Origin: an uncultured Pseudomonadales bacterium
GTDB taxonomy: Bacteria; Patescibacteriota; Microgenomatia; UBA1400; PJMF01
NCBI GenBank assembly: GCA_964404025.1
Contig: CAYOIJ010000001.1
Location: forward strand, 22,685-86,684
Direction of reading: 5' to 3'
DNA length: 64,000 bases
In this document: piece by piece, positions 20,256-48,222 of the stretch
Layout of the letters: the number at the start of each line of letters is the position of its first letter
Numbering within the stretch: the stretch's first letter is position 1
Program-made: the position numbers and the translations under genes
The notes under the pieces: model-generated
What the model was told of the DNA's origin: nothing
Databases searched by the model: none
What the model saw: only the letters and a program-made list of their open reading frames with translations

Positions 20256-20263
20256 AATTTTAT

Positions 20264-20704
20264 TTATATTATTGGACTTGGTATTTTGGGGTTAATTATA
20301 AAGCTAGCATCACCAAATAGAATTAAACCGATAACAGCGGCGATGGTGTAAGAGGCAACAATGATAGCGAGCCCAACAACGCTTAGAGTAAGTTTGGAGC
20401 CAATTTTTTCTATAGCTCCTGAGTTGTCGGCACTAGTGATATAGGTAAAACCAGCTAAGATAAAATTAAGCATGGTCCACAATCCAGCCACAATTGAGAT
20501 CAGTTTAATCAAGTTAGAAAAGAAAAGAATAAGGCCAATACCACTATCTGATTGTTGATTTAACTCAGCCACGCCAGGAGGAGCATCAATATTACCAAAA
20601 ACAGAAGCGGGTTTAGCGCTTGGGGTTTGGGCAAAGGTTTGATTATTTAAAAAGATGCTTGATGCAATAAGTAGAAAAAGTAGTCCTAAAATTATTTTTT
20701 TCAT
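20264..20704 (-). CDS. VirB2/TrbC-like pilin paralog 6 of 7
   Basis: Signal peptide ending FAQT. Loop YITSADNSGAIEKIGSKLTLSVVGLAIIVASYTI. Confidence 0.6.
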   Translation of the reverse strand: MKKIILGLLFLLIASSIFLNNQTFAQTPSAKPASVFGNIDAPPGVAELNQQSDSGIGLILFFSNLIKLISIVAGLWTMLNFILAGFTYITSADNSGAIEKIGSKLTLSVVGLAIIVASYTIAAVIGLILFGDASFIINPKIPSPII

Positions 20705-20733
20705 TTCAAATTTCCATTATACCTGGCTCTTTT

Positions 20734-21150
20734 TCAAAAGCCAATATCTGCTCCAGTAAATGTTTTGATTATTTGCATAATCCAATAAGCAGCGAAAATA
20801 ACTAAGAATCCGATGAGAGCCGAAGTCATGGTAGTTTTAGCTTTTTCTTTACTTTCTGACTCACTTCCGGCAATCATAGCTAAACCTGAAATAACGATCA
20901 TGGCAAAAAGAATTAAGCCAACTAAGACAAAGACAACTCTTACCAAAAGATTAACCATGTCTGCTGGCGTGCTAAAAACATCACTAACTTTTTGGCCGTC
21001 ACTAAGAACCAAGTATTCTGCAAGATCTATCTCAACAGCGTTAGTATCAGCTTGAGCTGTAAATTGAATGGATGAAAAATTAAAAATTAAAAAATTTGAA
21101 GCTAGAACTGACATTATTAATATAATTGTCATCAAGATTTTTTTCATCAA
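20734..21150 (-). CDS. VirB2/TrbC-like pilin paralog 7 of 7
   Basis: Signal peptide ending TAQA. Loop MIAGSESESKEKAKTTMTSALIGFLVIFAAYWI. Confidence 0.6.
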   Translation of the reverse strand: MMKKILMTIILIMSVLASNFLIFNFSSIQFTAQADTNAVEIDLAEYLVLSDGQKVSDVFSTPADMVNLLVRVVFVLVGLILFAMIVISGLAMIAGSESESKEKAKTTMTSALIGFLVIFAAYWIMQIIKTFTGADIGF

Positions 21151-26132: not shown

Positions 26133-27959
26133 ATGCTTTTTAATCGATTAACCCAATATTTGCTCAATTTAGAAAAACTTAGTTCTCGTCTGGAAATGAC
26201 AGAATTATTAGCTGAAGTTTTTAAAGAGCTTGGTGAAGAAGAAATCGCGCCAGCTAGTTATTTATTGCAAGGAGGTTTGGTCCCTAGCTATCAATCTCTA
26301 GAGTTTCAATTATCCAATAAAATGTTGGTGCGCTCTCTAGCCAATTTTTATCTTCGTTATGAAAATTCTCTAAAAGATAAAGGTCGAGAGCTATTTTCAG
26401 AGCAAAATTTGTTTGGCGCTGACAATCAAGAGCTAATTGTTAAGAGGTTAAACAAACAATACAAAGAAATGGGTGACTTGGGAGATTTGTTTTATCAAAC
26501 ATTAGATAATTTTTCAGAATTACTAAATAATGATAAAAATTTAAATATTTTGGAAGTTCATCAAAAACTAGAAGATATTGCCAGGGTTGGAGGACTAGGT
26601 TCTCAGGATAAAAAAATCAATCTTTTGGCTGATTTATTAAGTCAGGTTAGTCCCTTATCAGGTAAGTTTATAGCGCGGATTATTTTGGGGAAAATGCGTT
26701 TGGGTTTTTCTACTATGACCATGTTGGACGCATTGTCATGGGTAAAAACAGGGGACAAAAGTGAGTCTCCGGCTTTGGAGGAAGCTTTTCAAAAAAAAGC
26801 TGATTTTGGTTTGTTGGCAAAACTATATCTTTTTGAAAAAGATCTTAATGCTAAAGAATTAGCCAGTCGTTACAAAATGGAGCTGGGCATTCCAGTAGTG
26901 CCAGCACTATGCCAAAGACTGAATAGTTCTCAAGAAATTATTGATAAAATGGGTGAACTTATAGCTGAACCAAAATATGATGGTTTACGTATCCAAATCC
27001 ATCTCAATAAAGCTGGCTTTGCTGATGGTAGCCGATATAAAGCTTATACTCGCAATTTAGAAGAAGTATCAGCGATGTTTCCAGAATTAGATCAATTATT
27101 GGAAGAATTTCAGGGTGAAACAGCTATTTTAGATAGTGAGGCTGTCGGTATTAATCCTGATTCTGGGAAGTTTGTTGCTTTTCAAGAAACCATTTCTCGT
27201 AAACGTAAATATGAAGTTGATGCTAAAGCCTTGGAGTTACCCATTCGCTTTTATGTTTTTGATTTATTGTATTTGAATGATGAGTCTCTAATTGATGAGC
27301 AACTACTTGATCGTAAAAAAAAGCTCAGCAAGGCAATTAATGACTCACAAGTGGTTAAAATAACTGATTACCAAATTATCAGTGATCCAATTGTTTTAAC
27401 TAATTATCATGAAAAACAATTAGACCTTGGTTTAGAGGGCGCAGTAATGAAAAAACCAGAATCTGCTTATGTGGCTGGTCGTAAAGGTTGGCGTTGGGTA
27501 AAAATCAAGGAAGCTGAGGGTAAACGAGGTAAATTAAATGATACTCTTGACTGCATTATGATGGGTTATTATCGAGGCAAAGGTAAGAGACAAAGCTTTG
27601 GTATTGGGGCGCTGTTAGTTGGTGTTTTAGATGAAGTCAGTGGCAAAATTAAAACTTTATCTAAGATTGGTACTGGTTTAACTGATGAGCAATTTCGCAA
27701 AGTTAAGAATTTGGCAGATCAGCACTTGACCAGCAATCATGAGCCTAACTCAAAATATGATTTTAAAAAAGAATTGGCAGCTGATGTGTGGATTGAGCCA
27801 AAATTAGTCTTGGAAATTGCAGCTGATGAAATTTCCAAATCTCCGAGCCATACTGCTACGGTGGCCCTGCGCTTCCCTCGTTTGATAAAAATTAGGGGCG
27901 ACAAGGATTGGCAACAAGCAACTACCCTTCAGGAATTAAAAAATATTAGTCAGGCTTAA
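26133..27959 (+). CDS. lig: ATP-dependent DNA ligase (Lig1-like, with N-terminal DNA-binding domain)
   Basis: Motif I AEPKYDGLRIQIH (KxDGxR). LDSEAVGI (motif III). EGAVMKK (motif IV). RKGWRWVKIK (motif V). 608 aa. Confidence 0.8.
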   Translation: MLFNRLTQYLLNLEKLSSRLEMTELLAEVFKELGEEEIAPASYLLQGGLVPSYQSLEFQLSNKMLVRSLANFYLRYENSLKDKGRELFSEQNLFGADNQELIVKRLNKQYKEMGDLGDLFYQTLDNFSELLNNDKNLNILEVHQKLEDIARVGGLGSQDKKINLLADLLSQVSPLSGKFIARIILGKMRLGFSTMTMLDALSWVKTGDKSESPALEEAFQKKADFGLLAKLYLFEKDLNAKELASRYKMELGIPVVPALCQRLNSSQEIIDKMGELIAEPKYDGLRIQIHLNKAGFADGSRYKAYTRNLEEVSAMFPELDQLLEEFQGETAILDSEAVGINPDSGKFVAFQETISRKRKYEVDAKALELPIRFYVFDLLYLNDESLIDEQLLDRKKKLSKAINDSQVVKITDYQIISDPIVLTNYHEKQLDLGLEGAVMKKPESAYVAGRKGWRWVKIKEAEGKRGKLNDTLDCIMMGYYRGKGKRQSFGIGALLVGVLDEVSGKIKTLSKIGTGLTDEQFRKVKNLADQHLTSNHEPNSKYDFKKELAADVWIEPKLVLEIAADEISKSPSHTATVALRFPRLIKIRGDKDWQQATTLQELKNISQA

Positions 27960-29153: not shown

Positions 29154-29687
29154 ATGAAGATTTATGTGGGATTAGGTAATCCTGGGGAAAAATACCAAAA
29201 AACTCGTCACAATGCAGGCTTTATGTTTGTTGATACTATGGCTGAGGAGTTGGGCTTATCTTTTAAATTTGAAAAAAAATTTAACTCAGCATTAGCTGTA
29301 AAAAGAGATGATCTTTTTTTACTTAAGCCTCAAACTTTTATGAATAATTCTGGTCAGGCCCTAGGGGCGTTTTTAAATTATTTAAAAATTGACCTTAAAG
29401 ATTCACTTTCTGGTCCGGAAGATCTAGTTGTAGTTCATGATGACTTAGACTTAGCTTTAGGCACCTTTAAGTTGCAAAAAGCAGTTGGGCCTAAGGAACA
29501 CAATGGCTTACAATCAATCTATCAACATCTGGGAACTAAAGATTTCTGGCATTTGCGCTTGGGCGTGGACTCTAGACAAGGCCTGAGAAATATTCCTCCG
29601 GCAGACTATGTCTTGCAAACTATGCCACAACCTGAGCGTCAAATTTTTTATAAAACAGTAAAAGTGCTTTTGCAGGATTTGCTCTAG
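29154..29687 (+). CDS. pth: Peptidyl-tRNA hydrolase
   Basis: MKIYVGLGNPGEKYQKTRHNAGFMFVD signature. 177 aa. Confidence 0.9.
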   Translation: MKIYVGLGNPGEKYQKTRHNAGFMFVDTMAEELGLSFKFEKKFNSALAVKRDDLFLLKPQTFMNNSGQALGAFLNYLKIDLKDSLSGPEDLVVVHDDLDLALGTFKLQKAVGPKEHNGLQSIYQHLGTKDFWHLRLGVDSRQGLRNIPPADYVLQTMPQPERQIFYKTVKVLLQDLL

Positions 29688-30953: not shown

Positions 30954-32054
30954 TCAGTGTTGACGAGAACGAGCAAAATCTAAAATTTCCAGAAGCAGTT
31001 CTTGTAAATTTTTATTTTTCAACTGATTAATTAGGGTCTGCGCTTCCAGATTTAATTGATCCAAGAGTTGATTGACTTGTTTTAAGCTGTGGTTTTCAAA
31101 TAATTTTTGAATGGCTGAATATTGATTTTCTTTAATATTTTGTTTGGCAAAACAGTTGTTTAGTAATTCTCTTTCTTGTTTTCTGAGAGTTTTGTCTTTA
31201 ACCAGATAATAGTAAAAAATAGTTTTTTTGCCTTCTTTTACATCAGATAGGATTGGTTTGCCAGTCTTTTGATTATTGCCAAAAATGCCTAGATAATCGT
31301 CTCTAATTTGAAAGATAAGACCGATTTTTTCTCCAATTTCACTAAGTTGATTGCTGTCCTTAAATTTATTGGCGAGTTTTGCGGCGAGTATTAGGGGTAG
31401 AGAAAAACTGTAGCGAGCAGTTTTGTACAGATTCATTTCTAAGATTTGTTCCAGCGAAGGTAATGTTTCTTGCATTGCTAACTGACTATCAAGCATTTCA
31501 GCCAAAATTACTTGGCTAATTTCTCGATTAATCAAATTCTGAATGCCTAAAAACTGCTCTCTATTTAGTTTAATTTGTGAGTCTGAATTATTAGTGCTTT
31601 CCAAGACTAATTGATTGGCTAGAAAAAAACATATATTGCCTAAGCAAATTGCTTGGCTTTTTCCATAGTGTTGGTTTGGAGTTTGGTTTTGTTTAGAGTA
31701 ATATTGCCAGATAGAATCTTGTCCTCTTCGCTGCTGATCTTGATCAATAATATCATCATGAATCAACAATCCAGCCTGAATTAATTCAAGGGCGCTAGCC
31801 AAGGGCAATAAAATCTCTTCAAAGATTTTTTCTCTTTTTTGTGGTTCAAATATTTCATAAGCGAGGATGAACAAATTAGCTCTTGTCATTTTACCCAGCA
31901 CTACAAAGTTTTTTAGAGTTTCGAAGACATCATCATCCAAGCTTATTTTTTTTAATGCCTGTTTTTCTTGATCTAAAGATTTTTGAAGATAGTTGCTAAT
32001 ACTCGTTCTATATTTACTTAAAATGGACATCGATTTAGTCATGTTAAGTATCAT
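30954..32054 (-). CDS. Polyprenyl diphosphate synthase (trans-isoprenyl diphosphate synthase, FPP/GGPP-synthase family)
   Basis: First DDxxD LLIHDDIIDQDQQRRG. Second DDxxD FQIRDDYLGIFG. 366 aa. Confidence 0.85.
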   Translation of the reverse strand: MILNMTKSMSILSKYRTSISNYLQKSLDQEKQALKKISLDDDVFETLKNFVVLGKMTRANLFILAYEIFEPQKREKIFEEILLPLASALELIQAGLLIHDDIIDQDQQRRGQDSIWQYYSKQNQTPNQHYGKSQAICLGNICFFLANQLVLESTNNSDSQIKLNREQFLGIQNLINREISQVILAEMLDSQLAMQETLPSLEQILEMNLYKTARYSFSLPLILAAKLANKFKDSNQLSEIGEKIGLIFQIRDDYLGIFGNNQKTGKPILSDVKEGKKTIFYYYLVKDKTLRKQERELLNNCFAKQNIKENQYSAIQKLFENHSLKQVNQLLDQLNLEAQTLINQLKNKNLQELLLEILDFARSRQH

Positions 32055-33025: not shown

Positions 33026-33826
33026 ATGAAAAAAAATCTTACTTTAATTAAGCTCGGTGGTTCAATTATTACTGATAAAGAAATTCCTATGTCTTTGAGA
33101 GGATCAATTCTTAAGCGCTTGGTCGGTGAAATTGCTAGCGCTAGACAAGAAAAACCTGATCAATTACTAATAATTGGTCATGGTCAGGGTAGTTTTGCCC
33201 ATGTTCCAGCTAGTCAATATAAAACAATGGCTGGATTTATCAATGATGAAAGTGTTTTGGGGATGGCTATTGTTCAAGATAGTGCTGCTTCACTCAATCG
33301 TTTAGTTGTTCATGAGTTTTTAAAACACGAGTTAGCAGCGGTTTCTTTTTATGCTAGCAATACAATTGTTACGAAAAAAAGAAAATTATTGAATTTTTGT
33401 GCTGATGCTATCGATCAATATTTACAAAAAGGCTTATTGCCAATTACTTGTGGAGACGTCTTAGTTGACAGTGACCAGGGTTGCACGATCTGGTCAACAG
33501 AAAAAATCTTAGCTTTTTTAGCTGATTATTTTTTAGAAAAAGGAATGCAAGTGAACAAGATTATCCATGTAACAGAAGTAGCTGGTTTTTTAGATAAACA
33601 AGGCCAGCTTGTACCAGAAATTACAGCCAGTACTTGGCCTCAAATCAGTAAAGATTTACGCCATACTAGAGGTTTTGATGTGACTGGGGGCATGGGTTTA
33701 AAAATTGAGAAGTCGCTGGATTTAGCAAAAAAAGGGATTGAGTCAGTAATAATTTCTGGAATGATGAAAGACAATTTATTTTGGGCACTCAGTGGTCAAG
33801 ACTGTGTTGGTACTACTATTCATTAA
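33026..33826 (+). CDS. ipk: Isopentenyl phosphate kinase (amino-acid-kinase fold), archaeal-type
   Basis: LTLIKLGGSIITDK, IIGHGQGSFAH and GFDVTGGMGLKI align with the archaeal IPK motifs ILKLGGS / HGGGAFGH / DVTGGM. Confidence 0.75.
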   Translation: MKKNLTLIKLGGSIITDKEIPMSLRGSILKRLVGEIASARQEKPDQLLIIGHGQGSFAHVPASQYKTMAGFINDESVLGMAIVQDSAASLNRLVVHEFLKHELAAVSFYASNTIVTKKRKLLNFCADAIDQYLQKGLLPITCGDVLVDSDQGCTIWSTEKILAFLADYFLEKGMQVNKIIHVTEVAGFLDKQGQLVPEITASTWPQISKDLRHTRGFDVTGGMGLKIEKSLDLAKKGIESVIISGMMKDNLFWALSGQDCVGTTIH

Positions 33827-34286: not shown

Positions 34287-34290
34287 AGGG

Positions 34291-34364
34291 TGCGTGTGCT
34301 AGGACTTGAACCTAGAACCGCCAAGGTATAAGCTTGGTGCTCTAACCAATTGAGCTACACACGC
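34291..34364 (-). tRNA. tRNA with anticodon UAU. Ile-type, reading AUA, is inferred from the anticodon and D-arm only. 74 nt, with CC encoded after the discriminator A
   Basis: Hand-folded cloverleaf. Acceptor GCGTGTG/CACACGC is a perfect 7 bp. U8 A9. D-stem GCTC/GAGC with loop AATTGGTTA. Anticodon stem CCAAG/CTTGG with loop C-U-UAU-A-C. Variable loop CGGTT. T-arm CTAGG-TTCAAGT-CCTAG. Discriminator A. Confidence 0.8.
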
Positions 34365-34405
34365 GCTTGAAATGCATTATAGCAAAAAACCAAGGAAAAC
34401 TAACT

Positions 34406-35323
34406 TTACAAAAGTAGTAGTAGCAGTGCGCCAAAGCCAAGAACACCGAGTCCAGCTTTTAGGTAATTAAACCAATCGGCAAATCCTGATTCGGTTGGCA
34501 CAAGGGCTGGTCTCTCAATAACATTATTACCATCTGGCAAGCGACAGTTAACATCAGTTGGATTAACATCAAGACGACATAGTCCCTCATAACAAATGTG
34601 ACTGACATTGTCGCAGTCAGTATTTTCACTACAACTTTCATTACAACCAACAGTGGTAATTACTTGAGTTAAAACAGGAGTTGGCTCTTCTTTGGGAGGA
34701 GTAGTTACCGTAGTAGGTGTTGGAGTGGCAACTGGCTTATCGGTGGGAGTAGGTTCTGGAGTTTGAGTTGGGCTGGGAGTTCCTGTTGGTTCTGGAGTTG
34801 GAGTGAGTGTTAAAGATGGGGTTGGCGTGGTAGTTGGCTCAACACTAGGAGTGGGAGAGGGAGTAATGCTAATTGTTGGCTCCACACAGCAAGAGTCATA
34901 ATCACGCTGATTACGGCACTCATCAGTTTGTGAAGCTAAGCCACAAATACCAACTGCAATGGCCACTCCTTCATTTGGAGCGCCTTGTATACAAACATAA
35001 TCTTCTTGACAATCATTATCATCAGCGCAGCCACTTTCGGCACAGCTTAAGTTTAAAGGAACACTAAAGGTAGTGACACAAGATTCTTCTACAGGAATAT
35101 ATGCTTCTGGTTGAGATTGTGGGACGTTGGGAGCTACTGGTCCTGGTTCTAACTCTTGTTTGCGACTAATCAAAATAACACTAGCTGATCCCACGATAAA
35201 AAGTAGCAGAGTAAAAAACAATAGTACAGTTTTAAGTGGGTTTTTGCTCTTTTTTGTTTTAGAATCACCAGCACTCGGTGCTTTTGCATATTTGACTGGT
35301 TGGTAATTATTGTTTTTGTCCAT
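34406..35323 (-). CDS. Cys-rich, Thr/Pro-linker surface protein, paralog A. N-terminal signal-anchor and a shared C-terminal domain ending in a hydrophobic tail
   Basis: N-terminal basic region plus TM. Many Cys. PT-rich linker (TPSPTPSVEPTTTPTPS...). The roughly 95-aa C-terminal domain VITTVGCNESCSENTDCDNVSHICYEGLCRLDVNPTDVNCRLPDG...VPTESGFADWFNYLKAGLGVLGFGALLLLLL is near-identical to paralog C. Confidence 0.6.
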   Translation of the reverse strand: MDKNNNYQPVKYAKAPSAGDSKTKKSKNPLKTVLLFFTLLLFIVGSASVILISRKQELEPGPVAPNVPQSQPEAYIPVEESCVTTFSVPLNLSCAESGCADDNDCQEDYVCIQGAPNEGVAIAVGICGLASQTDECRNQRDYDSCCVEPTISITPSPTPSVEPTTTPTPSLTLTPTPEPTGTPSPTQTPEPTPTDKPVATPTPTTVTTPPKEEPTPVLTQVITTVGCNESCSENTDCDNVSHICYEGLCRLDVNPTDVNCRLPDGNNVIERPALVPTESGFADWFNYLKAGLGVLGFGALLLLLL

Positions 35324-35334
35324 TTTCTTATTTT

Positions 35335-36417
35335 TTATTCCAAGCTTGCCTCTTTAATTTCTGGGTTGGTCCATTCTTGGCAAGAATCTAAGCCTGTACA
35401 TAAGCGACATTCAGCAATAAAATCCCCACCTTCTTTAATTAAATAATCCGCAGAAGTATTGGCAATACTAAGTCTTTCTTCAAGAAAGACTACTTCTCCG
35501 TTTGGTTCTAAGACAGCAAAATCAAAGCGCTCAATTAAGTCATCAGGATTTCCGCTAGATGCTAGTTTACCAGAACATCTAAACCTAATAATGCTAACTC
35601 CAGGTATAAATTCTTGATCTGCATCTCCGGTTAAAACTTGATTATTTTGATCTAGAATTTCAACTTTGCGACACATTGGAACAGGAGTGGGTGTTGGTCC
35701 AGTAGTGGGTGTTGGTCCAGTGGTTGGAGTGGGACCGGTAGTTGGAGTGGGTCCAGTGGTGGGTGTTGGTGTTGGAGGACGTGGAGTGTTAGTTGGTTGA
35801 GGCGTATTGCCACACTCTCTTAGCGAAGTTTCATAATGCTGACAGCTCGAGTTAACATTGCAGTAGGTGTTTGAGTTGTTAACAGCATCAATTTGCCAGC
35901 ATTGAGGGTAGTTTGAGCTTCTGGCTTTATTCAGTAGGGTACTACAGTTTCCAAACTCCCAATAAGAACTAGGGTCAGACTCAGAGCATTTTCCAGGAAC
36001 TAGAATACCTTTTGGACAGTTGATGAGCACACATTTACCCTCCCAAGTACCTGAAGTATTTCGACAAGAACTTCCATAATGATAGGAATTACAGCTAAAA
36101 CCAGAACTATAAGCTTGTTGTCTGGTGTCTTGACGCTGTTTCATTAAAATTAAACCCGCAGCACTACTAGCCAGTAGGAAGAAAAGCAAGACAATTGCTA
36201 GTATATTGGTTTTATTTTTAGTCAAGTTGTCTTGTGGATTTTTAGAGCCAGAATCTTTACTAATCAGATTAGGTGGGGTTTTTTCTGTTTTAACTTCATT
36301 TTTCTTATCAAAATTATTACGTCTATTCAGGAAAAAAGTATTAGATTCTAGCTTATCAGGCTGACTCGGTATTGTTTCATTGTGAACTGGTGAAAAACGA
36401 TTGCTAGTGTCAGTCAT
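35335..36417 (-). CDS. Cys-rich, Thr/Pro-repeat surface protein, paralog B. It has a different C-terminal domain and no C-terminal hydrophobic tail
   Basis: N-terminal cytoplasmic stretch plus TM (ILAIVLLFFLLASSAAGLIL). Post-TM motif MKQRQDTRQQAYSS shared with paralog C (KRAQDLRQQAAYQ). (TGPTP)n repeats. Confidence 0.6.
   Translation of the reverse strand: MTDTSNRFSPVHNETIPSQPDKLESNTFFLNRRNNFDKKNEVKTEKTPPNLISKDSGSKNPQDNLTKNKTNILAIVLLFFLLASSAAGLILMKQRQDTRQQAYSSGFSCNSYHYGSSCRNTSGTWEGKCVLINCPKGILVPGKCSESDPSSYWEFGNCSTLLNKARSSNYPQCWQIDAVNNSNTYCNVNSSCQHYETSLRECGNTPQPTNTPRPPTPTPTTGPTPTTGPTPTTGPTPTTGPTPTPVPMCRKVEILDQNNQVLTGDADQEFIPGVSIIRFRCSGKLASSGNPDDLIERFDFAVLEPNGEVVFLEERLSIANTSADYLIKEGGDFIAECRLCTGLDSCQEWTNPEIKEASLE
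35690..35800. repeat. Tandem 15-nt coding repeat encoding (PTTGPT)n within surface protein paralog B
   Basis: GTGGGTGTTGGTCCAGTAGTGGGTGTTGGTCCAGTGGTTGGAGTGGGACCGGTAGTTGGAGTGGGTCCAGTGGTGGGTGTTGG read directly. Confidence 0.7.
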
Positions 36418-36522
36418 AAAAAGACTATGAATAAGGCATTACAAGTATTATCTTTAGATAAGCATACTCTATTTTTTGAGGCTTTAGCAAGAGTAATTTT
36501 TTATATTCCATTCTAGAATTAA

Positions 36523-37626
36523 CTAAAATAGAAGTAACAATAAGGTTCCAAGTCCTAGCGCACCCAAACCAATTTTAATGAAATTAAACCAATCAGCAAA
36601 ACCTGTTTCAGTTGGAATTTCTACTGCTCGCTCAATGATAGTACCACCATCTGGCAAGCGACAGTTAACATCAGTTGGGTAGACATCTAGACGACAAAAG
36701 CCTTCATAGCAAATATGGCTAATATTGGCACAATCAGCGTTTTCATTGCAACTTTCATTACAGCCAACAGTGGTAATTACTCTAGTTACGACTGGAGTTG
36801 GTTCTTCTGGTTTGTTAGTTGGCTGGATACTTGACGTGGGACTAGTAGTGGCTGTGGGTTCAGTGGTTGGGCCGGTGGTTGGCTCGGATGTTGGCCCAGT
36901 GGTTGGTCCGGTGGTAGGCTTAGTAGTTGGTTCGATTGTAGGTTCAGTGGTAGGTTCAGTGGTAGGTTCAGTGGTAGGTTCAGTAGTTGGTTCGATGGTG
37001 GGTTCAGTGGTTGGCTCGGATGTTGGCCCAGTGGTGGGTCCAGTGGTGGGTTTGGTGGTAGGCTCAGTGCTGGGTTTGGCTGTGGGTTGAGGAGAACTTT
37101 GACAATAATCTCCACCTCCTCCAGTACTAATACAAGTTCTTGGGCCACCATTTCCACCACAATTAGTAGTAATCCAACAATCGTGAGTATAGCACTTGGT
37201 ATACAAAAGATACCAATCCTTACAATAAGAACCTCCTTTGTTAGAACAACTACTAATCTGACTAGAGGTACAGATGATGTCCTGATAGGCAGCTTGTTGT
37301 CTCAGGTCTTGAGCTCTTTTAATTAAAAATAAAGAAGTTAAGGTGCCAATTACCAGTAATAAAAGTAAAATACCTAGCAAGATTGTTTTCTTTTGTTTAG
37401 GTGTTTTTTTTTGCTTGTTTTTTGTAGGTGCTTTACTTTTACCACTGTTGTTACCTGATTGAGATGTATTTACTGGATTTGTTTGAAGAATTGGGTTATT
37501 AGTAGAGGCATTTGTTGTTGAAGGCCCGTTAGGTCTAACCATCGGAGGCTCGCTAGGCTTGCTAGCTTGATTCTCATGAGGTTTTTGTTGGTATTTATTT
37601 GGTAAATATTTACTTAAGTCAGACAT
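36523..37626 (-). CDS. Cys-rich, Thr/Pro-repeat surface protein, paralog C, with the shared C-terminal domain and hydrophobic tail
   Basis: N-terminal Lys-rich region plus TM. Cys/Gly-rich segment. Roughly 80-aa (PTTE/PTTG/PTTK) repeat. C-terminus VITTVGCNESCNENADCANISHICYEGFCRLDVYPTDVNCRLPDGGTIIERAVEIPTETGFADWFNFIKIGLGALGLGTLLLLLF. Confidence 0.6.
   Translation of the reverse strand: MSDLSKYLPNKYQQKPHENQASKPSEPPMVRPNGPSTTNASTNNPILQTNPVNTSQSGNNSGKSKAPTKNKQKKTPKQKKTILLGILLLLLVIGTLTSLFLIKRAQDLRQQAAYQDIICTSSQISSCSNKGGSYCKDWYLLYTKCYTHDCWITTNCGGNGGPRTCISTGGGGDYCQSSPQPTAKPSTEPTTKPTTGPTTGPTSEPTTEPTIEPTTEPTTEPTTEPTTEPTIEPTTKPTTGPTTGPTSEPTTGPTTEPTATTSPTSSIQPTNKPEEPTPVVTRVITTVGCNESCNENADCANISHICYEGFCRLDVYPTDVNCRLPDGGTIIERAVEIPTETGFADWFNFIKIGLGALGLGTLLLLLF
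36845..37085. repeat. Tandem 12-nt coding repeat, about 20 units (GGTTCAGTGGTA-like), encoding (PTTE/PTTG/PTIE)n in paralog C
   Basis: Near-perfect 12-nt periodicity read directly. The antisense ORF-track entries here are frame artefacts of the repeat. Confidence 0.8.
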
Positions 37627-40066: not shown

Positions 40067-41113
40067 TTAATCGTTTATTAAAACCTTATAAGCTGATAAA
40101 AAGAAAACCTCCTTTTTTCTAAATCCACTTTTTTTTAAAACACTAATAAAATCTGTAATTTTATAAAATTTATACCAGTTCTGGTTAAAATTTAACTTTA
40201 ATATTGATTTTTTCAGCGAAAGAAACAAGTAGCCATATTCAATATCCTTGGTTGAGGAATCGGGAGTAAAGTGAATAAAAGTAATTTTTTCATTCTTAGT
40301 TTTCAATAAGGAGTAACTTTTATCCAATGCTTTTGGTTTTTTTTGACTCAAATACAGGCAATACACTGTTTGTTCTACTAAGTGAATCTGATATAAAAAT
40401 TCTACGCCTCTGTAGTAGTCTCTAATTATTCTTTCATACAAGGCATTACCAATGTTTTCTAACCAGTGATTTAAGTTTTTAAGGGTTCGCTGAGGATTTA
40501 CTGATTCTCTATTTATGCATAGCAAGCCACTATTTAATTGCTGAGGTAGGTTTTTCATTTTTAAATACTTTTGTGCCTCAATCGGTGAAATTACTTTAAA
40601 GTTCAAGTAATCCTGCAAGTACAATGAAAATAAATTTTTTGCATCTTTATCATTTACCCAGTCGATAATTTTTTTAGGAGAAGAAAAAAATAAACAGTCG
40701 GCATCTATAACAATGATTTTCTTGTATTGAGATAAAATTGGAGTGAATAATTTTTTTCCTGCCCAGGTTTTTTGATACATCTCCTCTGCAATTGAATGTT
40801 TTTTAAGCAGCGTTAGTGTTTGGGAATTAAGTTTTTCTAATAATTCAAATTCAGAACCCATTAATTTTATAAGCTTTTTGTGAAACTTTGTAAGTGATCC
40901 GTCATTGACGAAAATGATTTTGACATTTTTCACGAATTTTTTAAAACTAATTGCACTCAAAATTCCTAAATATATGTATTGATTGCCAACAGTAATAAAA
41001 GCAGCGGTGTTTTTTATTAATTTATTTTTAGAATTTTTCTTAAAAGAAATAATTAATACATTGACAAATATGGCAGTATTGACAATGTATCTTTTTAAAC
41101 GATGTTTGATCAT
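40067..41113 (-). CDS. Hypothetical protein, possible nucleotide-sugar-dependent glycosyltransferase (DxD-like KIIVIDADCLFF)
   Basis: 348 aa. N-terminal hydrophobic segment. Only weak motif evidence. Confidence 0.35.
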   Translation of the reverse strand: MIKHRLKRYIVNTAIFVNVLIISFKKNSKNKLIKNTAAFITVGNQYIYLGILSAISFKKFVKNVKIIFVNDGSLTKFHKKLIKLMGSEFELLEKLNSQTLTLLKKHSIAEEMYQKTWAGKKLFTPILSQYKKIIVIDADCLFFSSPKKIIDWVNDKDAKNLFSLYLQDYLNFKVISPIEAQKYLKMKNLPQQLNSGLLCINRESVNPQRTLKNLNHWLENIGNALYERIIRDYYRGVEFLYQIHLVEQTVYCLYLSQKKPKALDKSYSLLKTKNEKITFIHFTPDSSTKDIEYGYLFLSLKKSILKLNFNQNWYKFYKITDFISVLKKSGFRKKEVFFLSAYKVLIND

Positions 41114-41248
41114 AAGTTGTTGTGTTTTAAGTTTTAGTTTTTATAAGTAAATAATAGACTAATCTTTTACCAGCAGGGTTCAGGTAATGATATACTATGT
41201 GCAATTATTCTACAATAAAGGCATGGGAATTATTTTTCGATATAAATT

Positions 41249-42625
41249 ATGAAAACAAAGGTTATTTTTGTTAATCCACCATTTTATAGGTCAGAAAATT
41301 CAAACGCATCCAATAACTTCAAGGTGGATGGACCGAGATTTCACAAGATATATAGGAACATCCCTCAATTATTAAAAATTTGGAATAAATTTAGAGATCC
41401 TACGGTTAGATTTGGTGTAAGAGCTGGGTCTAGATGGCCGTGGACTTGGGATCAGCCCCTAGAACCAATTCACTATCCATTTATGATGGCTTATGCAACT
41501 TCATATTTGATTTCAAAAGGAATAGAATCAAAATTAATTGATTCTATCGCTGAAGAAGACTACTCTTATTCTAACTTTCTCAAAAAAATAAAAAAGGAAA
41601 AAGCAGATATTGTTGTCATGGAAACCTCTATGATTTCTTTGGACATTGATATGTGGTTGGCTAAAAAAATTAGTAGCTTTAGCGAGGTAGGAATAGCTGG
41701 CTCTTATGTAACTTATTATGCTCAAAGTATGCAAAATAAATATCCTTTTATCAGCTATTTGTTGCCAGGAGAATATATAAAATCATCTTTTAAAATGGCA
41801 GTCAAGAAACAAAAGGGTGTTTATAAATCAGAAATTATAAGTGACTTGGATGCATTGCCTTTTCCATACAGAGACTATCCAGAGTCAATAAAGTATTACG
41901 ATCCTACGATGCCAACCCCCAAGCCTCAACTGCAAATTTATGGGAGCAAGGGTTGTCCCTTCAAATGTTCGTTTTGTCTTTGGACTCAAACCATGTATTT
42001 TCATAAGTTCACACTGAGAGACCCTAAGAGAATTGCCGAAGAAATTAAGCATTGTGTAAAAAAATATAAATTTAAAAGTATTTTTTTTGATGATGACACT
42101 TTTAATATTGGCAATGAACGCATAAGTGAATTATGCGACCTATTAAAAGAAATTAATTTACCATGGACGATGATGGGGAGACTAGATTGTTCTCCTGATT
42201 GGTTGATTGACAAAATGGTTGCTTGTGGCTGTGTTGGCATGAGGTTTGGTTTGGAGACTTTTAATAAAAAAGTTAGTAAAAGAGTAGATAAGGGATTGGT
42301 CGATCAGAATCTTTACAAGAAAATAAAAAGATTGAGTGATAAGTATCCTAAATTAATGTTGAGAATATTCATGATGAAAGATTTACCAGGTCAGACAAAT
42401 CAAATGCATCAATCTGATATGAAAAAATTACAAGGTCTAGGATTTAAAGAATTTGGTGATAAATATAGACAAATTCAAGTATCTGTTTGTGCGCCTTTTC
42501 CCGGAACTAAACTGTTTGAAGAAATTAAGGACAAAGTTGATTCTGATAAATTAGACGATTATCGTTTATATGATGGGCACTTAAATACAATAATGAAATA
42601 TTTTAATAAAAATAATTCAAACTAG
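41249..42625 (+). CDS. B12-binding-domain radical SAM enzyme
   Basis: CxxxCxxC cluster YGSKGCPFKCSFCLW. N-terminal roughly 180 aa consistent with a cobalamin-binding Rossmann-like domain (ADIVVMETSM...). 458 aa. Confidence 0.7.
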   Translation: MKTKVIFVNPPFYRSENSNASNNFKVDGPRFHKIYRNIPQLLKIWNKFRDPTVRFGVRAGSRWPWTWDQPLEPIHYPFMMAYATSYLISKGIESKLIDSIAEEDYSYSNFLKKIKKEKADIVVMETSMISLDIDMWLAKKISSFSEVGIAGSYVTYYAQSMQNKYPFISYLLPGEYIKSSFKMAVKKQKGVYKSEIISDLDALPFPYRDYPESIKYYDPTMPTPKPQLQIYGSKGCPFKCSFCLWTQTMYFHKFTLRDPKRIAEEIKHCVKKYKFKSIFFDDDTFNIGNERISELCDLLKEINLPWTMMGRLDCSPDWLIDKMVACGCVGMRFGLETFNKKVSKRVDKGLVDQNLYKKIKRLSDKYPKLMLRIFMMKDLPGQTNQMHQSDMKKLQGLGFKEFGDKYRQIQVSVCAPFPGTKLFEEIKDKVDSDKLDDYRLYDGHLNTIMKYFNKNNSN

Positions 42626-42636
42626 TATTTTCAGTT

Positions 42637-43494
42637 ATGAAAATTTTAATTGTTGGGGCTTCAGGATTTATCGGTTCAGCACTACATTTTTCTTTGGCAA
42701 AAAAAACAAAGGTGATAGGTACTTATTACAAAAACTACGTTCCTGGCACTTATTATTTAGATGCCAATAGTCCTGATAATATAAAAAACTTTTTAAAAAA
42801 ACATACAGATATTGATTTTATTATTTTGAGTCATGGTGTTAAAGATTTAGTAAAGTGTGAAAATGATTATTCGTTGGCTTATCAAAACAACGTTCAACAA
42901 ACAATTAACATTGTTGAATCATTAAAATGCTTTAATAATAAAGCTAGGGTTATATATATATCATCTAATTATGTTTTTGATGGAAAAAAAGGTTTATATA
43001 AAGAGTATGATAAAAAAAATCCAAGAACTATTTACGGCAAGACTAAGTCTTTGGCAGAAGACTATTTAATTAGCCAGGATGTTCCTTGGACAATTATTAG
43101 AACGTCTTCTGTCATAGGTTTAAAAAGTAGTTTTATTAGCTATGTTAAACGGGAGTCTTTGAAAAAGAATAAAATATTTCTCTATAAAAATGTAAACATT
43201 AACCCGACTCCAGCAACAATGTTGATGGATTTTTTTGATTTACTAGTCTTTGATAGTGATTTAAACAGTACTAAAAATCAAATCCTTCATTTTGTAGATA
43301 AAAAAATTGAAAGCAAATATAGCTTTGTTATAAATAACTACAAAGTATTGAGTTTAGAAGTTGAGATAGAGCCAATAATAAGTGAGAGTCCACTTTATTT
43401 TGAGAATTTAACAATGAAGGTTACTGATAAATTTTACTCTCAACTAAGCTCATCTTATGACAAATATTTAAGAGAATCACTAACTGAAAACTAA
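42637..43494 (+). CDS. NAD(P)-dependent sugar-nucleotide reductase, RmlD-like (dTDP-4-dehydrorhamnose reductase family)
   Basis: MKILIVGASGFIGSAL Rossmann motif. YISSNYVFDGKKGLYKEYDKKNPRTIYGKTKSLAE matches the RmlD S.DYVFDG...Y.E.D...P...YG.SK pattern. 285 aa. Confidence 0.6.
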   Translation: MKILIVGASGFIGSALHFSLAKKTKVIGTYYKNYVPGTYYLDANSPDNIKNFLKKHTDIDFIILSHGVKDLVKCENDYSLAYQNNVQQTINIVESLKCFNNKARVIYISSNYVFDGKKGLYKEYDKKNPRTIYGKTKSLAEDYLISQDVPWTIIRTSSVIGLKSSFISYVKRESLKKNKIFLYKNVNINPTPATMLMDFFDLLVFDSDLNSTKNQILHFVDKKIESKYSFVINNYKVLSLEVEIEPIISESPLYFENLTMKVTDKFYSQLSSSYDKYLRESLTEN

Positions 43495-43496
43495 TT

Positions 43497-44690
43497 TTAT
43501 TTCAATAATGAATTGACTATATTAACTAGTTTTTTGATTTCGATGTCCATATTAGCTTGTTCAGTCACATACTTGTAACCTTTTTCTATTATTTTTTCTT
43601 TTAAATCTGGATTCTTTAAATAAAAAGATATTTTTTTTTCTAGATCTCTGTTGCCACTACTGACTATTAGTTTGTTGTGCAGAGAGTGTTTTTTATTAAT
43701 AAATCTTGCATCGGTAATCACAAATCCCTTGCAAGCTAACGCTTCCAATGTTCTAAGAGTAACAACATTCAATCTTAAATGATCTAGGGCTGTAAAATTC
43801 AAACAAATTTTACTTGAATTATATAGACTTCTTACATGAGCTTGTGATATTTTTCCTCTGGATATTTGAGAAAAAATTGAACTGTCATAGTAGGTATAAC
43901 TATAAATGTTTGCAATTATTCTGACTTTTAAATTATTTATTTCAATTTCTAATTTTTGTTTTTTGTCTTCTATTTTTAAAATGAAATTATTGGCTATCTT
44001 TTTTAGATGTCTGAATTTATTTTTTAAATATATCAGCACAGCTTTAAAATTACGTTTATCTGAAGCAAAATTTTTAATACTTATTTTAATTTTTTTATAT
44101 ACTTTTAACTGTTTTGATTCTTCTTTTTTTATAATTTCTTTAGAGTTGGCTTGATTCCAGCCTCCAAATAATCCAAACTTGAATTTTAATGGTGGAAGCA
44201 GATATTTTTCTGTATGTTCTTTATTTTTAATATTATTCCCAACATAAACGACATCATAAGAATTCTTTTTTACTTTTTTCTCAGGGAAAAATATTTCTGT
44301 ATCTACACAAAAAGGGAAATAAAATACTTTTTTATTTTTTAATTTAGTTTTGTATGATTCATACAATTTTTTTGAAACAAATATATAGGCATCGTATTTA
44401 TATTTGCTAATTTTAAACAAAATCTTTTCAGATTTTTCTTGATAAGGATCTTGCAAATAGAGAACGTGTTTTTTTGCCCAATTTTTGTTTAAAGGCGTTT
44501 CGTCCAGATAGATCATCAAATCAATCTTTTTTAAGGGTAGATTGATGGCAGAATATAATCTTGCACGAATCTTATTAGGTTTATTAATTCTTTTACATAG
44601 TGATTCTGCATACAACTCATCTCCAACAACATAGTTATTGTTTTTTAGAGATCCTGTATGGTATTTTGTATAGAAACCAATATTAATCAT
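43497..44690 (-). CDS. CgeB-like glycosyltransferase (Glyco_trans_1_2 C-terminal domain)
   Basis: C-terminal LRLNVVTLRTLEALACKGFVITDA...KKISFYLKNPDLKEKIIEKGYKYV fits the R.FEa.acG...kl.yyl.np..r motif of CgeB-type GT-B enzymes. Confidence 0.5.
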   Translation of the reverse strand: MINIGFYTKYHTGSLKNNNYVVGDELYAESLCKRINKPNKIRARLYSAINLPLKKIDLMIYLDETPLNKNWAKKHVLYLQDPYQEKSEKILFKISKYKYDAYIFVSKKLYESYKTKLKNKKVFYFPFCVDTEIFFPEKKVKKNSYDVVYVGNNIKNKEHTEKYLLPPLKFKFGLFGGWNQANSKEIIKKEESKQLKVYKKIKISIKNFASDKRNFKAVLIYLKNKFRHLKKIANNFILKIEDKKQKLEIEINNLKVRIIANIYSYTYYDSSIFSQISRGKISQAHVRSLYNSSKICLNFTALDHLRLNVVTLRTLEALACKGFVITDARFINKKHSLHNKLIVSSGNRDLEKKISFYLKNPDLKEKIIEKGYKYVTEQANMDIEIKKLVNIVNSLLK

Positions 44691-45616
44691 TATTGAAATT
44701 GTTCTTTTGTTGAATGATAGTTTGCTATAGTTAAACCTTTAACAATTTCATAAGTTTTTTTACTGAATTTTAAAAAGTTTTCCTTTACAGTTTTATAATG
44801 ACAAAAATTAAAAATATTTTTAAAATCTGAATAAACATATTTAAGATTTTCATTCAATACTTGCTTGCTTAATTGATGGTCAAATTTACCAATATAACTA
44901 TAACAAGCAATTTCTCCGCCAAGATAAGATAACTTTAATTTTTGATGCTCCTTTTTTGTTAGCCACCTATTGTGGTGCAAAATTATCTTGGGTTCATAAA
45001 GTATAGTTTTTTTGTTTATCAGAGCTCTCAGTGCTATTTCTGCATCTTCAGCACTTTTGGTTCTTGTTCCAGGTCCCAGCCATTCTTTAAAACCTCCATG
45101 TTTTTTAAAAAAACTGCTTTTCCAAGCCATGTTGTTGCCAAAACCTATGTTTTCCCAATGTTTACATGGTTTACTAATATATCTTTTTTGATTTTTTAAA
45201 AAAACTGCTGGGCAAACCAAACCGTTATTAATATTTTTTTTGTAAGGCAATGTTTTACCAAAGACAGCGACTATTTTTTTGTCATTTTGCAGGGTTGATT
45301 TAATATTTTTTAGCCAATTGAAGCTTGGTAAACAGTCATCATCAGTAAAAGCAATTATTGGAGTGGTGCTTAGTTTAATTGCGAGATTTAAGGCTTTAGA
45401 TTTACCTTCATTACTTGTATAAATATAGCGACAATTTTTTATTTTTTTAATTTCTTTTTTTAAGGCATGGCTCATCTTTTTTGAGCAACTTTGATCTACA
45501 ATAATTAATTCAAAATTATTAAAATTGCCATTATTTAAAGCCTGTAGACAATTAGTTAATTGTTTTTGACGATTTTTTGTTGCGATAATGAGAGATAATT
45601 CTGTTGACGTTGACAT
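44690..45616 (-). CDS. Glycosyltransferase family 2
   Basis: SLIIATKNRQKQLTNCLQAL...ELIIVDQSC...GKSKALNLAI...IIAFTDDDCLP (GT-A DxD). Confidence 0.8.
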   Translation of the reverse strand: MSTSTELSLIIATKNRQKQLTNCLQALNNGNFNNFELIIVDQSCSKKMSHALKKEIKKIKNCRYIYTSNEGKSKALNLAIKLSTTPIIAFTDDDCLPSFNWLKNIKSTLQNDKKIVAVFGKTLPYKKNINNGLVCPAVFLKNQKRYISKPCKHWENIGFGNNMAWKSSFFKKHGGFKEWLGPGTRTKSAEDAEIALRALINKKTILYEPKIILHHNRWLTKKEHQKLKLSYLGGEIACYSYIGKFDHQLSKQVLNENLKYVYSDFKNIFNFCHYKTVKENFLKFSKKTYEIVKGLTIANYHSTKEQFQ

Positions 45617-45634
45617 TGATATAATATTTTTGTA

Positions 45635-46051
45635 TTAGAGGCTATAATATTTTTTTTGCACTGAACCGAGAAAAGGTCCTTGTTTGACTTCAAATATTTC
45701 AGCTTGTGTTAACAGTTCGAAGCTATGACCCAAAGATCTTTGAAATAAAATATCCCCCTTTTTTAAAATTTCAGTTTGAAATAATTTCCCTTGCTTGTTG
45801 TAGAAATTTACTTTAACTTTTCCCTTAACAATGTAAAAAACCTCCTGCAAGCTATCCACAGAACATTTTTGAAAGCAATGGTAATGAGCTTTTAATTTAG
45901 CACCTTTGGGCTTTTTATGATAACCAACTTGCAAATAATCTTCCTTTTTTGAAAAAAAATCCAAATTATCAATTGGAAACTGTGCCCTCACAATATAAGC
46001 AATTTCTTTGTTGTTGTAGAGGATTTTTTTGATGTTTTCTGTTTTTGACAT
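45635..46051 (-). CDS. Cupin-fold WxcM/FdtA-like protein (possible sugar-nucleotide ketoisomerase)
   Basis: 138 aa. GYHKKPKGAKLKAHYHCF... resembles the WxcM-like C-terminal cupin domain. Lies in a glycan locus. Confidence 0.5.
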   Translation of the reverse strand: MSKTENIKKILYNNKEIAYIVRAQFPIDNLDFFSKKEDYLQVGYHKKPKGAKLKAHYHCFQKCSVDSLQEVFYIVKGKVKVNFYNKQGKLFQTEILKKGDILFQRSLGHSFELLTQAEIFEVKQGPFLGSVQKKYYSL

Positions 46052-46242
46052 ATTTGGTTAAAAACTAGCGGTGTAGATTAAATACAAAATACAAATAAAA
46101 AACACTAATAGCAACCAGTATTTAATTTCGATCAATTTATGACATAATATACCAGATAATCAACATTTTATTTATTAGAGCTTTTACTCTTTTGAGGTTT
46201 AGATTTATTAAACTTCACTGTTAGAAATTATTAAAAAAATCA

Positions 46243-47409
46243 ATGGATATAATTTTTTCAACCTATGAGGCTAAAGAAATTGGTGGAAGTTATTTGCGTT
46301 CCTTGTCTTTAGCGCAGGGATTAACTGAGCTAGAACATCAAGTGACTTTGTGGACTAGTGCTAAAAAAATTAGTTTCTTACCAAAAGTAAGTTATGAAAA
46401 GGGTGTAAAGGTTGTAGAATCAATAGGCTTAATGCCTTATCGTTTTCGAAAAGGGGGAAATGACATTTTTGATATTTGTTTTAGAAGTTTGGCTATTTTC
46501 TTTTCAAAATGTGATGTTATTCAAAGTTTTAATCATCGGCCAGCAGCGACTATTCCTGCTTTGATTAAGTCTCGCTTTTTTCCAAAAACAAAGTGGTTTT
46601 TGGATTGGGCTGACCTCTGGGGAAGAGGAGGTATAGCAGATCGTCGTTATGGACCTTTTAGTTTTTTAACAGTGAATTTTGATCATTATACTGAGCGTCT
46701 TTTTATTCGTTTAGCTTTTGCTGTTACAGTAATTAGTGATGATTTAGTTAAAAAAGCTAAATTAATTAGAAAAAAAAAGAACAATGTATTTTTTCTAGGT
46801 GTTGGAGCTAATATTCAAGGCATTAAGACGATGTCTAAATTTCTTGCGAGACGCAAACTGGGTTTGAGTCAAACAAAAAAAATACTAGTTTATTTATATG
46901 TTGGTACTTATGATGAAGAGTTATTGGCTAAAACTTTTATAGAGTTAAACCATTTAAGGAAAGATGTGCTATTAATGTTGTTGGGTCCTCCAATACCAGC
47001 TTTCGAGAAAGAAATAAACGTTCATAAGAGTTTAAACAATAAGGTTATATATCAAGGAGTTGTTGATAGAGATTTGCTAAGTTTATATTTGTCGGCTGGC
47101 GATTTAATGCTTTTACCTTTTGCAGATAAAGAAATTAATAGAGGTAAATTTCCCAATAAACTGGGAGATTATTTGGCAGTTGGCAGACCCACGATTGCTA
47201 ATCCAACCGGCGAAGTTAAGAAATTATTGACTCAGGAAAAAGTTGGAATTTTAGCTCCAGAGACACCAAAAGAGTTTGCTTCTGCGATAAATAAAAGTCT
47301 TAAACAAGTAAGCAAATTAAGACAGCTGGGTAAAAATGCTAGGATATTAGCTGATAAACTATCTTGGCGCACTATTGCTCAAGAGCTTGAAGCTTTTTAC
47401 ATTAAATAG
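46243..47409 (+). CDS. Glycosyltransferase family 1 (GT4-like, GT-B fold)
   Basis: C-terminal LMLLPFADKEINRGKFPNKLGDYLAVGRPTIANPTGEV (E..G.P.KL.EY.A.G.P.I motif). Confidence 0.75.
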   Translation: MDIIFSTYEAKEIGGSYLRSLSLAQGLTELEHQVTLWTSAKKISFLPKVSYEKGVKVVESIGLMPYRFRKGGNDIFDICFRSLAIFFSKCDVIQSFNHRPAATIPALIKSRFFPKTKWFLDWADLWGRGGIADRRYGPFSFLTVNFDHYTERLFIRLAFAVTVISDDLVKKAKLIRKKKNNVFFLGVGANIQGIKTMSKFLARRKLGLSQTKKILVYLYVGTYDEELLAKTFIELNHLRKDVLLMLLGPPIPAFEKEINVHKSLNNKVIYQGVVDRDLLSLYLSAGDLMLLPFADKEINRGKFPNKLGDYLAVGRPTIANPTGEVKKLLTQEKVGILAPETPKEFASAINKSLKQVSKLRQLGKNARILADKLSWRTIAQELEAFYIK

Positions 47410-48222
47410 GTTTTTTCTAAAAAACCAAATATTTTTTTCTTGATTGAAATATATGCTTGGACTTAACTTACATAAGTGAACAAGTTTTGTTATCTGTCTC
47501 CATATAACTTTAATTATTGTTGCTAAGACAATTGGTGTTTTATCGTTTATTTCGGCGTAATATTTTCGGTGTTGATCATTGTTTTTTCGATTAGGATTGA
47601 GTCGATATGAGGCCAAACAGGCATCAACACAATAGAGTTGACTGTGTTGTGCAAATTTTTGCCAAAGCTTCATGTCCATTGAATAAGGCACTTCATCTAA
47701 TTTACCTCCAGTTTTTTCCCATAGTGATCTTCGCCAAAAAGTTCCCTCTTGCATAATAAAACCCAATAGTTTTCTGGTATATAATCCTTTTTTAATTAAA
47801 GACCTTATGTACAGAGGTTTTCTAGCTAAATATATGAGGTGTCCAGTTTCGTTTATGGTAGATGGCAAACTTGTTAGCCAATCTATTTCTGGAAATTTTG
47901 CAAAAATGCTAGCTACTAGCTTGAAGGTGCCTGGTTTAATAATGTCGTCACTATTAATCCAAGCCATAATTTCACCGTTAGTTTGTGCAAAACCCTTGTT
48001 AATGGCATGAGATTGTCCTCGATCTTTTTTGCTCTCAAAATAATCAATTTTTTTTTGATATTTTTTGATAATTTCCAAACTTTGATCACTTGAACCCCCA
48101 TCTATTATTAGATATTCAAAATTGGGATAATCTTGATTTAAAACTGATTGAATTGTTTCTTCAATAAATTCTCCTTGATTGTAAGATGGAGTGACAATAG
48201 AAATTTTAGGCAATTTCTTCAT
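47359..48222 (-). CDS. Glycosyltransferase family 2
   Basis: KISIVTPSYNQGEFIEETIQSVLNQDYPNFEYLIIDGGSSDQSLEII, classic GT2 N-terminus. 287 aa. Confidence 0.85.
   Translation of the reverse strand: MKKLPKISIVTPSYNQGEFIEETIQSVLNQDYPNFEYLIIDGGSSDQSLEIIKKYQKKIDYFESKKDRGQSHAINKGFAQTNGEIMAWINSDDIIKPGTFKLVASIFAKFPEIDWLTSLPSTINETGHLIYLARKPLYIRSLIKKGLYTRKLLGFIMQEGTFWRRSLWEKTGGKLDEVPYSMDMKLWQKFAQHSQLYCVDACLASYRLNPNRKNNDQHRKYYAEINDKTPIVLATIIKVIWRQITKLVHLCKLSPSIYFNQEKNIWFFRKNLFNVKSFKLLSNSAPR

Follow-up and report, generated by a model that had tools for sequence, protein, structure and literature searches.

A tRNA-Ile with a gene-encoded UAU anticodon as a probable reader of AUA codons in a Microgenomates-group bacterium

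The window (the whole 64-kb stretch of DNA analysed here) carries a tRNA-Ile gene with the anticodon UAU, and prediction and comparison with relatives make it almost certain that this is a real, conserved, vertically inherited and working AUA-reading tRNA of the type Ile3(UAU), also written tRNAIle2(UAU). How to tell AUA (Ile) from AUG (Met) is a textbook problem of decoding. Nearly all bacteria are said to rely for this on lysidine, the product of the essential enzyme TilS; in most of them AUA is read by a tRNA-Ile2 whose CAU anticodon TilS converts to LAU. The canonical tRNA-Ile2 and its TilS serve the same task, AUA to Ile, but the anticodon in the window is TAT, not CAT, so that no lysidine step should be needed for this tRNA. 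By analogy with Mycoplasma mobile, we lean towards the view that tRNA-Ile(UAU) is the principal AUA decoder of this Microgenomates-group bacterium.

The tRNA-Ile(UAU) gene and its relatives

ARAGORN recovered a single tRNA from the 64-kb window, a minus-strand tRNA-Ile with anticodon tat at 34289..34364, and when all of Rfam was compared with the same 64 kb the sole above-threshold match was RF00005 (minus strand, 34364..34291; 73.9 bits, the gathering score being 29; E 2.6e-14; model positions 1-71 complete). All 21 stem pairs in the RF00005 alignment are canonical and none is flagged. The coordinates used here span 74 nt and end at the discriminator A73; the ARAGORN call is 76 nt long. The first-pass annotation had proposed a canonical cloverleaf with a genomic UAU anticodon and an Ile-type body, and this is supported, both programs agreeing on the gene and the anticodon. 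The loop it had read, C-U-U-A-U-A-C, and its coordinates are exact, and the strand, which it left out, is minus. ARAGORN returned the same anticodon and a canonical fold, and the RF00005 score is well above the gathering score. The features at and beside the gene are as follows.

34291..34364, minus strand: tRNA-Ile gene, anticodon TAT (UAU), from ARAGORN, Rfam RF00005, covariation and relatives
34328..34330, minus strand: anticodon T34-A35-T36 in the loop C32-T-T-A-T-A-C38, from the sequence, ARAGORN and the Rfam alignment
34376..34384, minus strand: promoter-like extended -10 element TGCTATAAT, predicted from the sequence and relatives, with a putative function
34406..37626, minus strand: three tandem paralogous PT-repeat, Cys-rich proteins with a C-terminal membrane anchor, from open reading frames

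Read on the minus strand, the gene is GCGTGTG TA GCTC AATTGGTTA GAGC A CCAAG CTTATAC CTTGG CGGTT CTAGG TTCAAGT CCTAG CACACGC A. The 76-nt ARAGORN call has the anticodon at position 35, and the Rfam alignment has CUUAUAC as the anticodon loop, which is 7 nt long and contains U33 and A37, as expected of an Ile3-TAT gene; a tRNA-Ile2(CAU) gene would carry CAT where this one has TAT. The discriminator A73 runs on into CCC, and the gene is thus without an encoded CCA.

A clade-specific tRNA pattern in which the acceptor stem was left free retrieved 21 metagenome contigs. The same gene is present in 20 of them, the remaining contig (L143) beginning inside it, and across the 21 the tRNA is near-identical, with compensatory changes. 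Where the window has the acceptor stem GCGTGTG/CACACGC, relatives show the paired changes GCGTGCG/CGCACGC, GCGTCCG/CGGACGC and GCGCTCA/TGAGCGC, and also GCGCGCG/CGCGCGC, GCGTGTA/TACACGC and GCGCCTG/CAGGCGC. In L070, the closest species-representative genome among the matches listed, 72 of the 74 positions match and the two differences form one compensatory pair.

The wider family was examined in an alignment (A1) of 73 distinct UAU tRNAs of the same architecture, with pairs counted on the cloverleaf; a filter of at most two mismatches applied to the UAU-tRNA set removed no sequences. Pairing is kept in 99.7% of stem cells and 15 of the 21 pairs change on both sides. The covariation score was 0.752, compared with 0.162 in shuffles (0 of 500 reached 0.752) and at most 0.13 for slid partners, and since the search patterns fixed the D stem, anticodon loop and T loop, the free covariation evidence in these figures is limited to the acceptor and anticodon stems and a portion of the T stem. 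The A73 and the D and T arms of the window tRNA fit the pattern common to the whole UAU family.

The element TGCTATAAT, a box of the TGnTATAAT type, ends 11 nt upstream of the mature tRNA 5' end. The same box, or one resembling TATAAT or TAAAAT, occupies the same place in most relatives (for example L130, L131, L132, L137, L142, L144, L125 and L070). A scan for two-hexamer promoters and for terminators found nothing convincing at the tRNA gene, being silent at the box because there is no -35 match. The box is probably a dedicated promoter of tRNA-Ile(UAU).

Reading of AUA with and without lysidine

Gene-encoded UAU tRNAs-Ile are a known type, to which the window tRNA adds one more lineage. The tRNAIle2(UAU) of M. 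mobile and the corresponding tRNAs of hemotropic Mycoplasma, Neorickettsia and Bifidobacterium adolescentis resemble it in the gene-encoded TAT, A37 and A73, and this group likewise combines small AT-rich genomes with heavy AUA use (PMC3575796, PMC8450103); like theirs, the window tRNA would read AUA without lysidine. In M. mobile, U34 is unmodified and A37 is t6A, the IleRS depends on Arg865 at the place of E. coli Trp905, and AUG is rejected by the cognate ribosome (PMC3575796). There are also differences: those systems belong to other, unrelated phyla, whereas the window is from the Microgenomates group of the Patescibacteria (CPR); position 38 is C here; and the M. mobile system is defined by an unmodified U34, by the loss of both tilS and trnI(CAU) and by an IleRS that is either of eukaryote type or adapted to U34 (Arg or Lys at the position of E. 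coli W905), whereas the window resembles it in the tRNA gene and in codon use. Among the matches listed, the loop CUUAUAC with C38 is common to about half of the UAU tRNAs.

Comparable solutions exist in other domains. Nanoarchaeum equitans and Korarchaeum cryptofilum have an archaeal Ile3(UAU), and eukaryotes use a tRNA-Ile(psi-A-psi) in which positions 34 and 36 are pseudouridylated; in these small-genome lineages a decoder with a UAU-type anticodon has taken the place of one with a modified cytidine, as may be the case here. The D arm (UAGCUCA..GGUUAGAGC) and T arm (GGUUCAAGUCC) of the window tRNA presumably resemble those of E. coli tRNA-Ile2; a blastn comparison of the window tRNA with E. 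coli genomes gave no match at E 0.01, the query being too short for that database.

If tRNA-Ile(UAU) is the principal decoder, the gene would be transcribed from its own extended -10 promoter, the 5' end would be trimmed by RNase P (rnpA lies in the window at 7371..7736) and CCA would be added post-transcriptionally. A37 would most likely be modified to t6A, IleRS would charge the tRNA with isoleucine, and AUA would be read by plain U34-A pairing, allowing the many AUA codons of an AT-rich genome to be translated without the conversion of CAU to lysidine. The M. mobile analogy further requires an IleRS that accepts U34, and a means of preventing the tRNA from reading AUG, either competition by tRNA-Met or discrimination by the ribosome.

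The strongest alternative is that the UAU tRNA is redundant: tilS and tRNA-Ile2(CAU to LAU) would also be kept, with the UAU tRNA only adding AUA-reading capacity, a role suggested for it in Lactobacillus casei and L. plantarum, and perhaps being a poor substrate of IleRS. We regard this as doubtful but a real possibility. It has precedents in several bacteria, since Lactobacillus casei, L. plantarum, Cyanothece and Ferrimonas, like the window, have a gene-encoded UAU tRNA-Ile, trnI(TAT), and in their case tilS is present as well (PMC3575796). The supplementary list of genomes without Ile2 that accompanies tRNAscan-SE 2.0 contains no CPR genome. Neither tilS nor ileS nor tRNA-Ile2(CAU) was found in the 64-kb window, and the absence of a tilS-like sequence and a CAU tRNA counts against redundancy, but the window is a small part of the genome and each of the three genes could lie outside these 64 kb. 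Searches with E. coli TilS (tblastn, phmmer) of the window and about 1.07 Mb of fetched loci also found no TilS, in an amount of sequence too small to carry weight. Strong conservation in a phylum of reduced genomes fits an essential role better than a spare one. In five patescibacterial loci (L004, L024, L057, L099 and L113) the UAU tRNA shares a cluster with two CAU tRNAs, the one initiator-like and the other elongator-like, and no third CAU tRNA lies nearby. This argues against redundancy but is suggestive only, because these CAU tRNAs are not rigorously classified: they were sorted as initiator-like or elongator-like, and Met and Ile2 are not separable without isotype models. Some of the initiator-like CAU tRNAs in these clusters have an unusual 71-nt form starting TGCGGGG.

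Several genes seen in the course of these searches deserve mention. A scan of the window and relatives for the SGGxDS PP-loop motif detected proteins in L131, L140 and L142 that were considered as TilS and rejected as divergent and QueC-like, and they have no counterpart in the window. Each (L131 1779.., L140 4748.., L142 5929..) is a PP-loop protein of about 325 aa in which only the C-terminal zinc-binding QueC part is matched (PF06508, 50-54 bits), the TIGR00364 score being far below cutoff. The QueC-like gene lies in the variable glycan region of these close relatives, a few kb from the UAU tRNA. With E. coli IleRS as query, the only matches in the window and fetched loci were in L048 (860..3858) and L077 (7045..8000), loci of MAGs labelled 'archaeon' in which the UAU tRNA directly adjoins ileS. 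By eye, the L048 IleRS (966 aa) has no C-terminal CxxC zinc-finger motif, in comparison with E. coli IleRS, and a partial synthetase in L004 appears MetRS-like.

The distribution of UAU tRNAs was surveyed by scanning one genome per species (185,579 species) with the pattern GGTNAGAGC-N6-CTTATA-N14-GGTTCRANTCC. This generic pattern matched at least 120 loci in species-representative genomes, a lower bound only that gives no frequency, because a single pattern and an arbitrary scan order were used. ARAGORN called tRNA-Ile(tat) in 119 of the 120 loci listed. Patescibacteria names are attached to 63 of the 120, including 25 Saccharibacteria, and the other labels from this phylum are Parcubacteria or Paceibacteria, Nomura-, Taylor-, Kaiser-, Uhr-, Falkow-, Kuenen-, Moranii-, Nealson-, Woese- and Dojkabacteria, Peribacteria and WWE3. 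Many of the remaining loci listed are from unnamed 'bacterium' MAGs, with Planctomycetota, Chloroflexota, Ignavibacteria and others also represented; at least one locus labelled 'archaeon', L069, looks bacterial by its neighbour genes. Among the matches listed, the UAU tRNA stands beside valS in at least nine loci and beside ileS in two. Patescibacteria are a minority of the species in the scanned collection. As predicted tRNAs, those with the UAU anticodon are widespread in Patescibacteria.

The first-pass annotation had called a genomically encoded UAU rare, which holds for cultured bacteria and is in keeping with published surveys. tRNAscan-SE 2.0 reported 17 bacterial genomes in which 'Ile3-TAT' replaces Ile2, all of them Bifidobacterium adolescentis, Mycoplasma or Neorickettsia (PMC8450103); in 2013 the species described as lacking tilS and having trnI(TAT) numbered nine, from three clades (PMC3575796); and a 2026 preprint still speaks of 'rare cases'. 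For Patescibacteria the description does not hold, given 63 of the 120 loci listed. Nothing relevant that links lysidine, TilS or tRNA modification with CPR names was found in the literature searched. These observations suggest that what counts as an exception could be the norm in Patescibacteria, to which a large part of bacterial diversity belongs. It is quite possible, though we would stop short of calling it probable, that tRNA-Ile(UAU) is the usual and perhaps ancestral AUA decoder across Patescibacteria, TilS and tRNA-Ile2(LAU) having been lost or become dispensable in much of the phylum.

Were this true phylum-wide, CPR would be by far the largest clade with lysidine-free AUA reading, TilS would not be universally essential, and a tRNA-Ile with U34 would have to be accommodated by the IleRS and ribosomes of CPR. 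There would also be consequences for the suggestion that AUA was read through an unmodified UAU anticodon in the last common ancestor (PMC3575796, Discussion). Cultivable members of the Saccharibacteria, a group whose uncultured MAGs yielded UAU tRNAs in the scan, would lend themselves to experiments on how the misreading of AUG is prevented. Annotation would be affected, because isotype models and completeness checks that expect Ile2(CAU) would mislead for these genomes.

AUA codons and isoleucine identity

The Ile determinants of E. coli, in work by Nureki and colleagues from 1994, are reportedly A73, U12-A23, C4-G69, C29-G41 and A38. Compared with this set, the window tRNA has A73 and U12-A23, whereas pair 4-69 is U-A, pair 29-41 is A-U and position 38 is C. 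In the UAU-tRNA family A73 is invariant (73 of 73 members) although the search pattern left it unconstrained, and pairs 4-69 and 29-41 covary freely, so C4-G69 and C29-G41 do not appear to be determinants in this family. With C4-G69, C29-G41 and A38 absent, Ile identity would rest on the anticodon, A73, U12-A23 and the overall body of the tRNA.

Demand for AUA decoding is considerable. The 63 open reading frames of the window (19,914 codons) contain 352 AUA codons, equal to 17.7 per 1000 and 21.6% of Ile codons, and AUA is present in 58 of the 63 genes, five being without it; the earlier description of AUA as abundant thus stands for the window. This usage falls in the 'high' class, above 10 per 1000, of a published classification (PMC12514573). 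It is uneven: outside a glycan cluster at 40067..58891 the figure is about 13 per 1000, compared with about 28 per 1000 inside the cluster.

The meaning of AUA was examined in the valyl-tRNA synthetase of the window.

14348..16678, minus strand: ValRS, 776 aa (NF004349, 739.7 bits)

In an alignment with 17 homologues (60-71% identity), the gene's 12 AUA codons fall in columns where 37% of residues are Ile and 11% are Val. Columns 385, 486 and 719 are invariant Ile and column 727 is mostly Ile. As far as this small sample of 12 ValRS codons goes, AUA stands for Ile in proteins of the window, because the codons align mainly with Ile and Val in the comparison. AUA codon 620 stands where 16 of the 17 homologues have Met, a single case that may reflect a simple replacement of Met by Ile or may point to ambiguity between AUA and AUG.

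It is very unlikely that the tRNA is something other than an Ile decoder, whether a decaying pseudogene, a tRNA of other identity with a mutated anticodon, or a tRNA in an organism that has reassigned AUA. The missing E. coli identity pairs and the AUA codon at the conserved ValRS Met column would be in line with such a reading, but they are set against 73.9 bits in Rfam with 21 of 21 stem pairs canonical, a near-identical tRNA with compensatory changes in 21 contigs and a 72/74 match in L070, A73 and D and T arms as in the whole UAU family, AUA columns that are mainly Ile or Val, with three invariant Ile, and long open reading frames that are normal under code 11.

The same synthetase gene was considered as a possible IleRS and rejected on its match to NF004349. 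The protein matches this equivalog profile to position 696 of 860, without the usual C-terminal extension, and more than 100 close homologues listed are mostly 745-781 aa long, so the short form is natural and not the product of a frameshift. The nearest named homologues listed are from Candidatus Woesebacteria (75% identity), Candidatus Pacebacteria GW2011_GWF2_38_9 (64%) and Microgenomates bacterium 39_7 (60%). Together with the gene content of the window, these matches place the source, an ultrasmall bacterium of groundwater type, in the Microgenomates group of the Patescibacteria. An open reading frame that overlaps the ValRS stop codon (13929..14360, minus strand) encodes a membrane protein unrelated to ValRS.

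Neighbouring genes

Seven contigs (L127, L129, L132, L137, L142, L143 and L144) are collinear with window 24-40 kb at about 70-73% nucleotide identity, their orthologous proteins being 57-88% identical in the closest contigs and 33-73% identical in the more distant L127. The common gene order is isopentenyl phosphate kinase, a small membrane protein, tRNA-Ile(UAU), a PT-rich surface protein, a sugar transferase and an ABC-2 transporter pair. The full series of six is present in L132, L137 and L142, and L127 and L144 reach the surface-protein gene only; in these five the tRNA slot lies between the gene for a membrane protein of 140-156 aa and the surface-protein gene. L129 and L143 show the membrane-protein side alone because their sequences end at or within the tRNA. 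Since the gene order is kept in syntenic relatives, tRNA-Ile(UAU) is part of the inherited backbone.

The surface proteins at 34406..37626 have only a weak PT-repeat match in Pfam. In L132, L137 and L142 their slot holds a single gene of 475-491 aa, compared with three paralogues in the window, and in the more distant L040 a homologous surface-protein domain adjoins the tRNA too. By this comparison, what sets the window apart from its relatives is that one surface-protein gene has locally become three, with no repeat-bounded insertion.

The first-pass annotation had also raised the idea that the tRNA flanks the surface-protein island as an integration site; on this reading the adjacent surface-protein genes would have arrived with an element integrated at the tRNA. 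The tRNA does abut the three paralogous genes, which are followed by a low-GC glycan cluster, but a second copy of its 3' part (22 nt, up to three mismatches, 0 expected by chance) was not found in the 64-kb window, no scanned window open reading frame has an integrase, recombinase or transposase domain in Pfam, the slot and the order from isopentenyl phosphate kinase to ABC transporter are kept in relatives of 70-73% identity, the L040 tRNA likewise stands beside a homologous domain, and the paralogue expansion lacks bounding repeats. With no att-like repeat, no integrase and the same position in syntenic relatives, the integration-site reading fails; it is largely refuted and we consider it highly improbable.

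The window has a GC content of 28-37% (33% overall), and its other genes are varied. The segment at 4-9.4 kb holds dnaA, dnaN, rnpA, yidC and a KhpB-like gene, a DUF4012 protein is also encoded, and three further features can be listed.

1844..4039: VirB4/TraG-like ATPase
18122..21150, minus strand: seven tandem small genes of 113-146 aa, six of which match PF18895 (type IV secretion system pilin family)
26133..27959, plus strand: three-domain ATP-dependent DNA ligase (PF04675, PF01068, PF04679)

Three-domain ATP-dependent DNA ligases are the form usually found in archaea and eukaryotes. Genes of isoprenoid synthesis are dispersed in the neighbourhood of the tRNA, comprising an archaeal-type isopentenyl phosphate kinase (33026..33826, plus strand; NF040647, 186.9 bits), an IPP isomerase (16736..17380, plus strand), a polyprenyl synthase (30954..32054, minus strand) and UppS (17395..18111, plus strand). 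The low-GC (28-30%) cell-envelope glycan cluster at 40067..58891 contains glycosyltransferases, Wzy-like ligases, PMT_2-like proteins, epimerases and a B12/radical SAM enzyme, and beyond the ABC transporter its content differs from that of relatives. In L144 (4216..4748) the gene for peptidyl-tRNA hydrolase is split into two open reading frames of 90 and 87 aa, probably by a frameshift or an assembly error, whereas both the window (29154..29687) and L129 have it intact.
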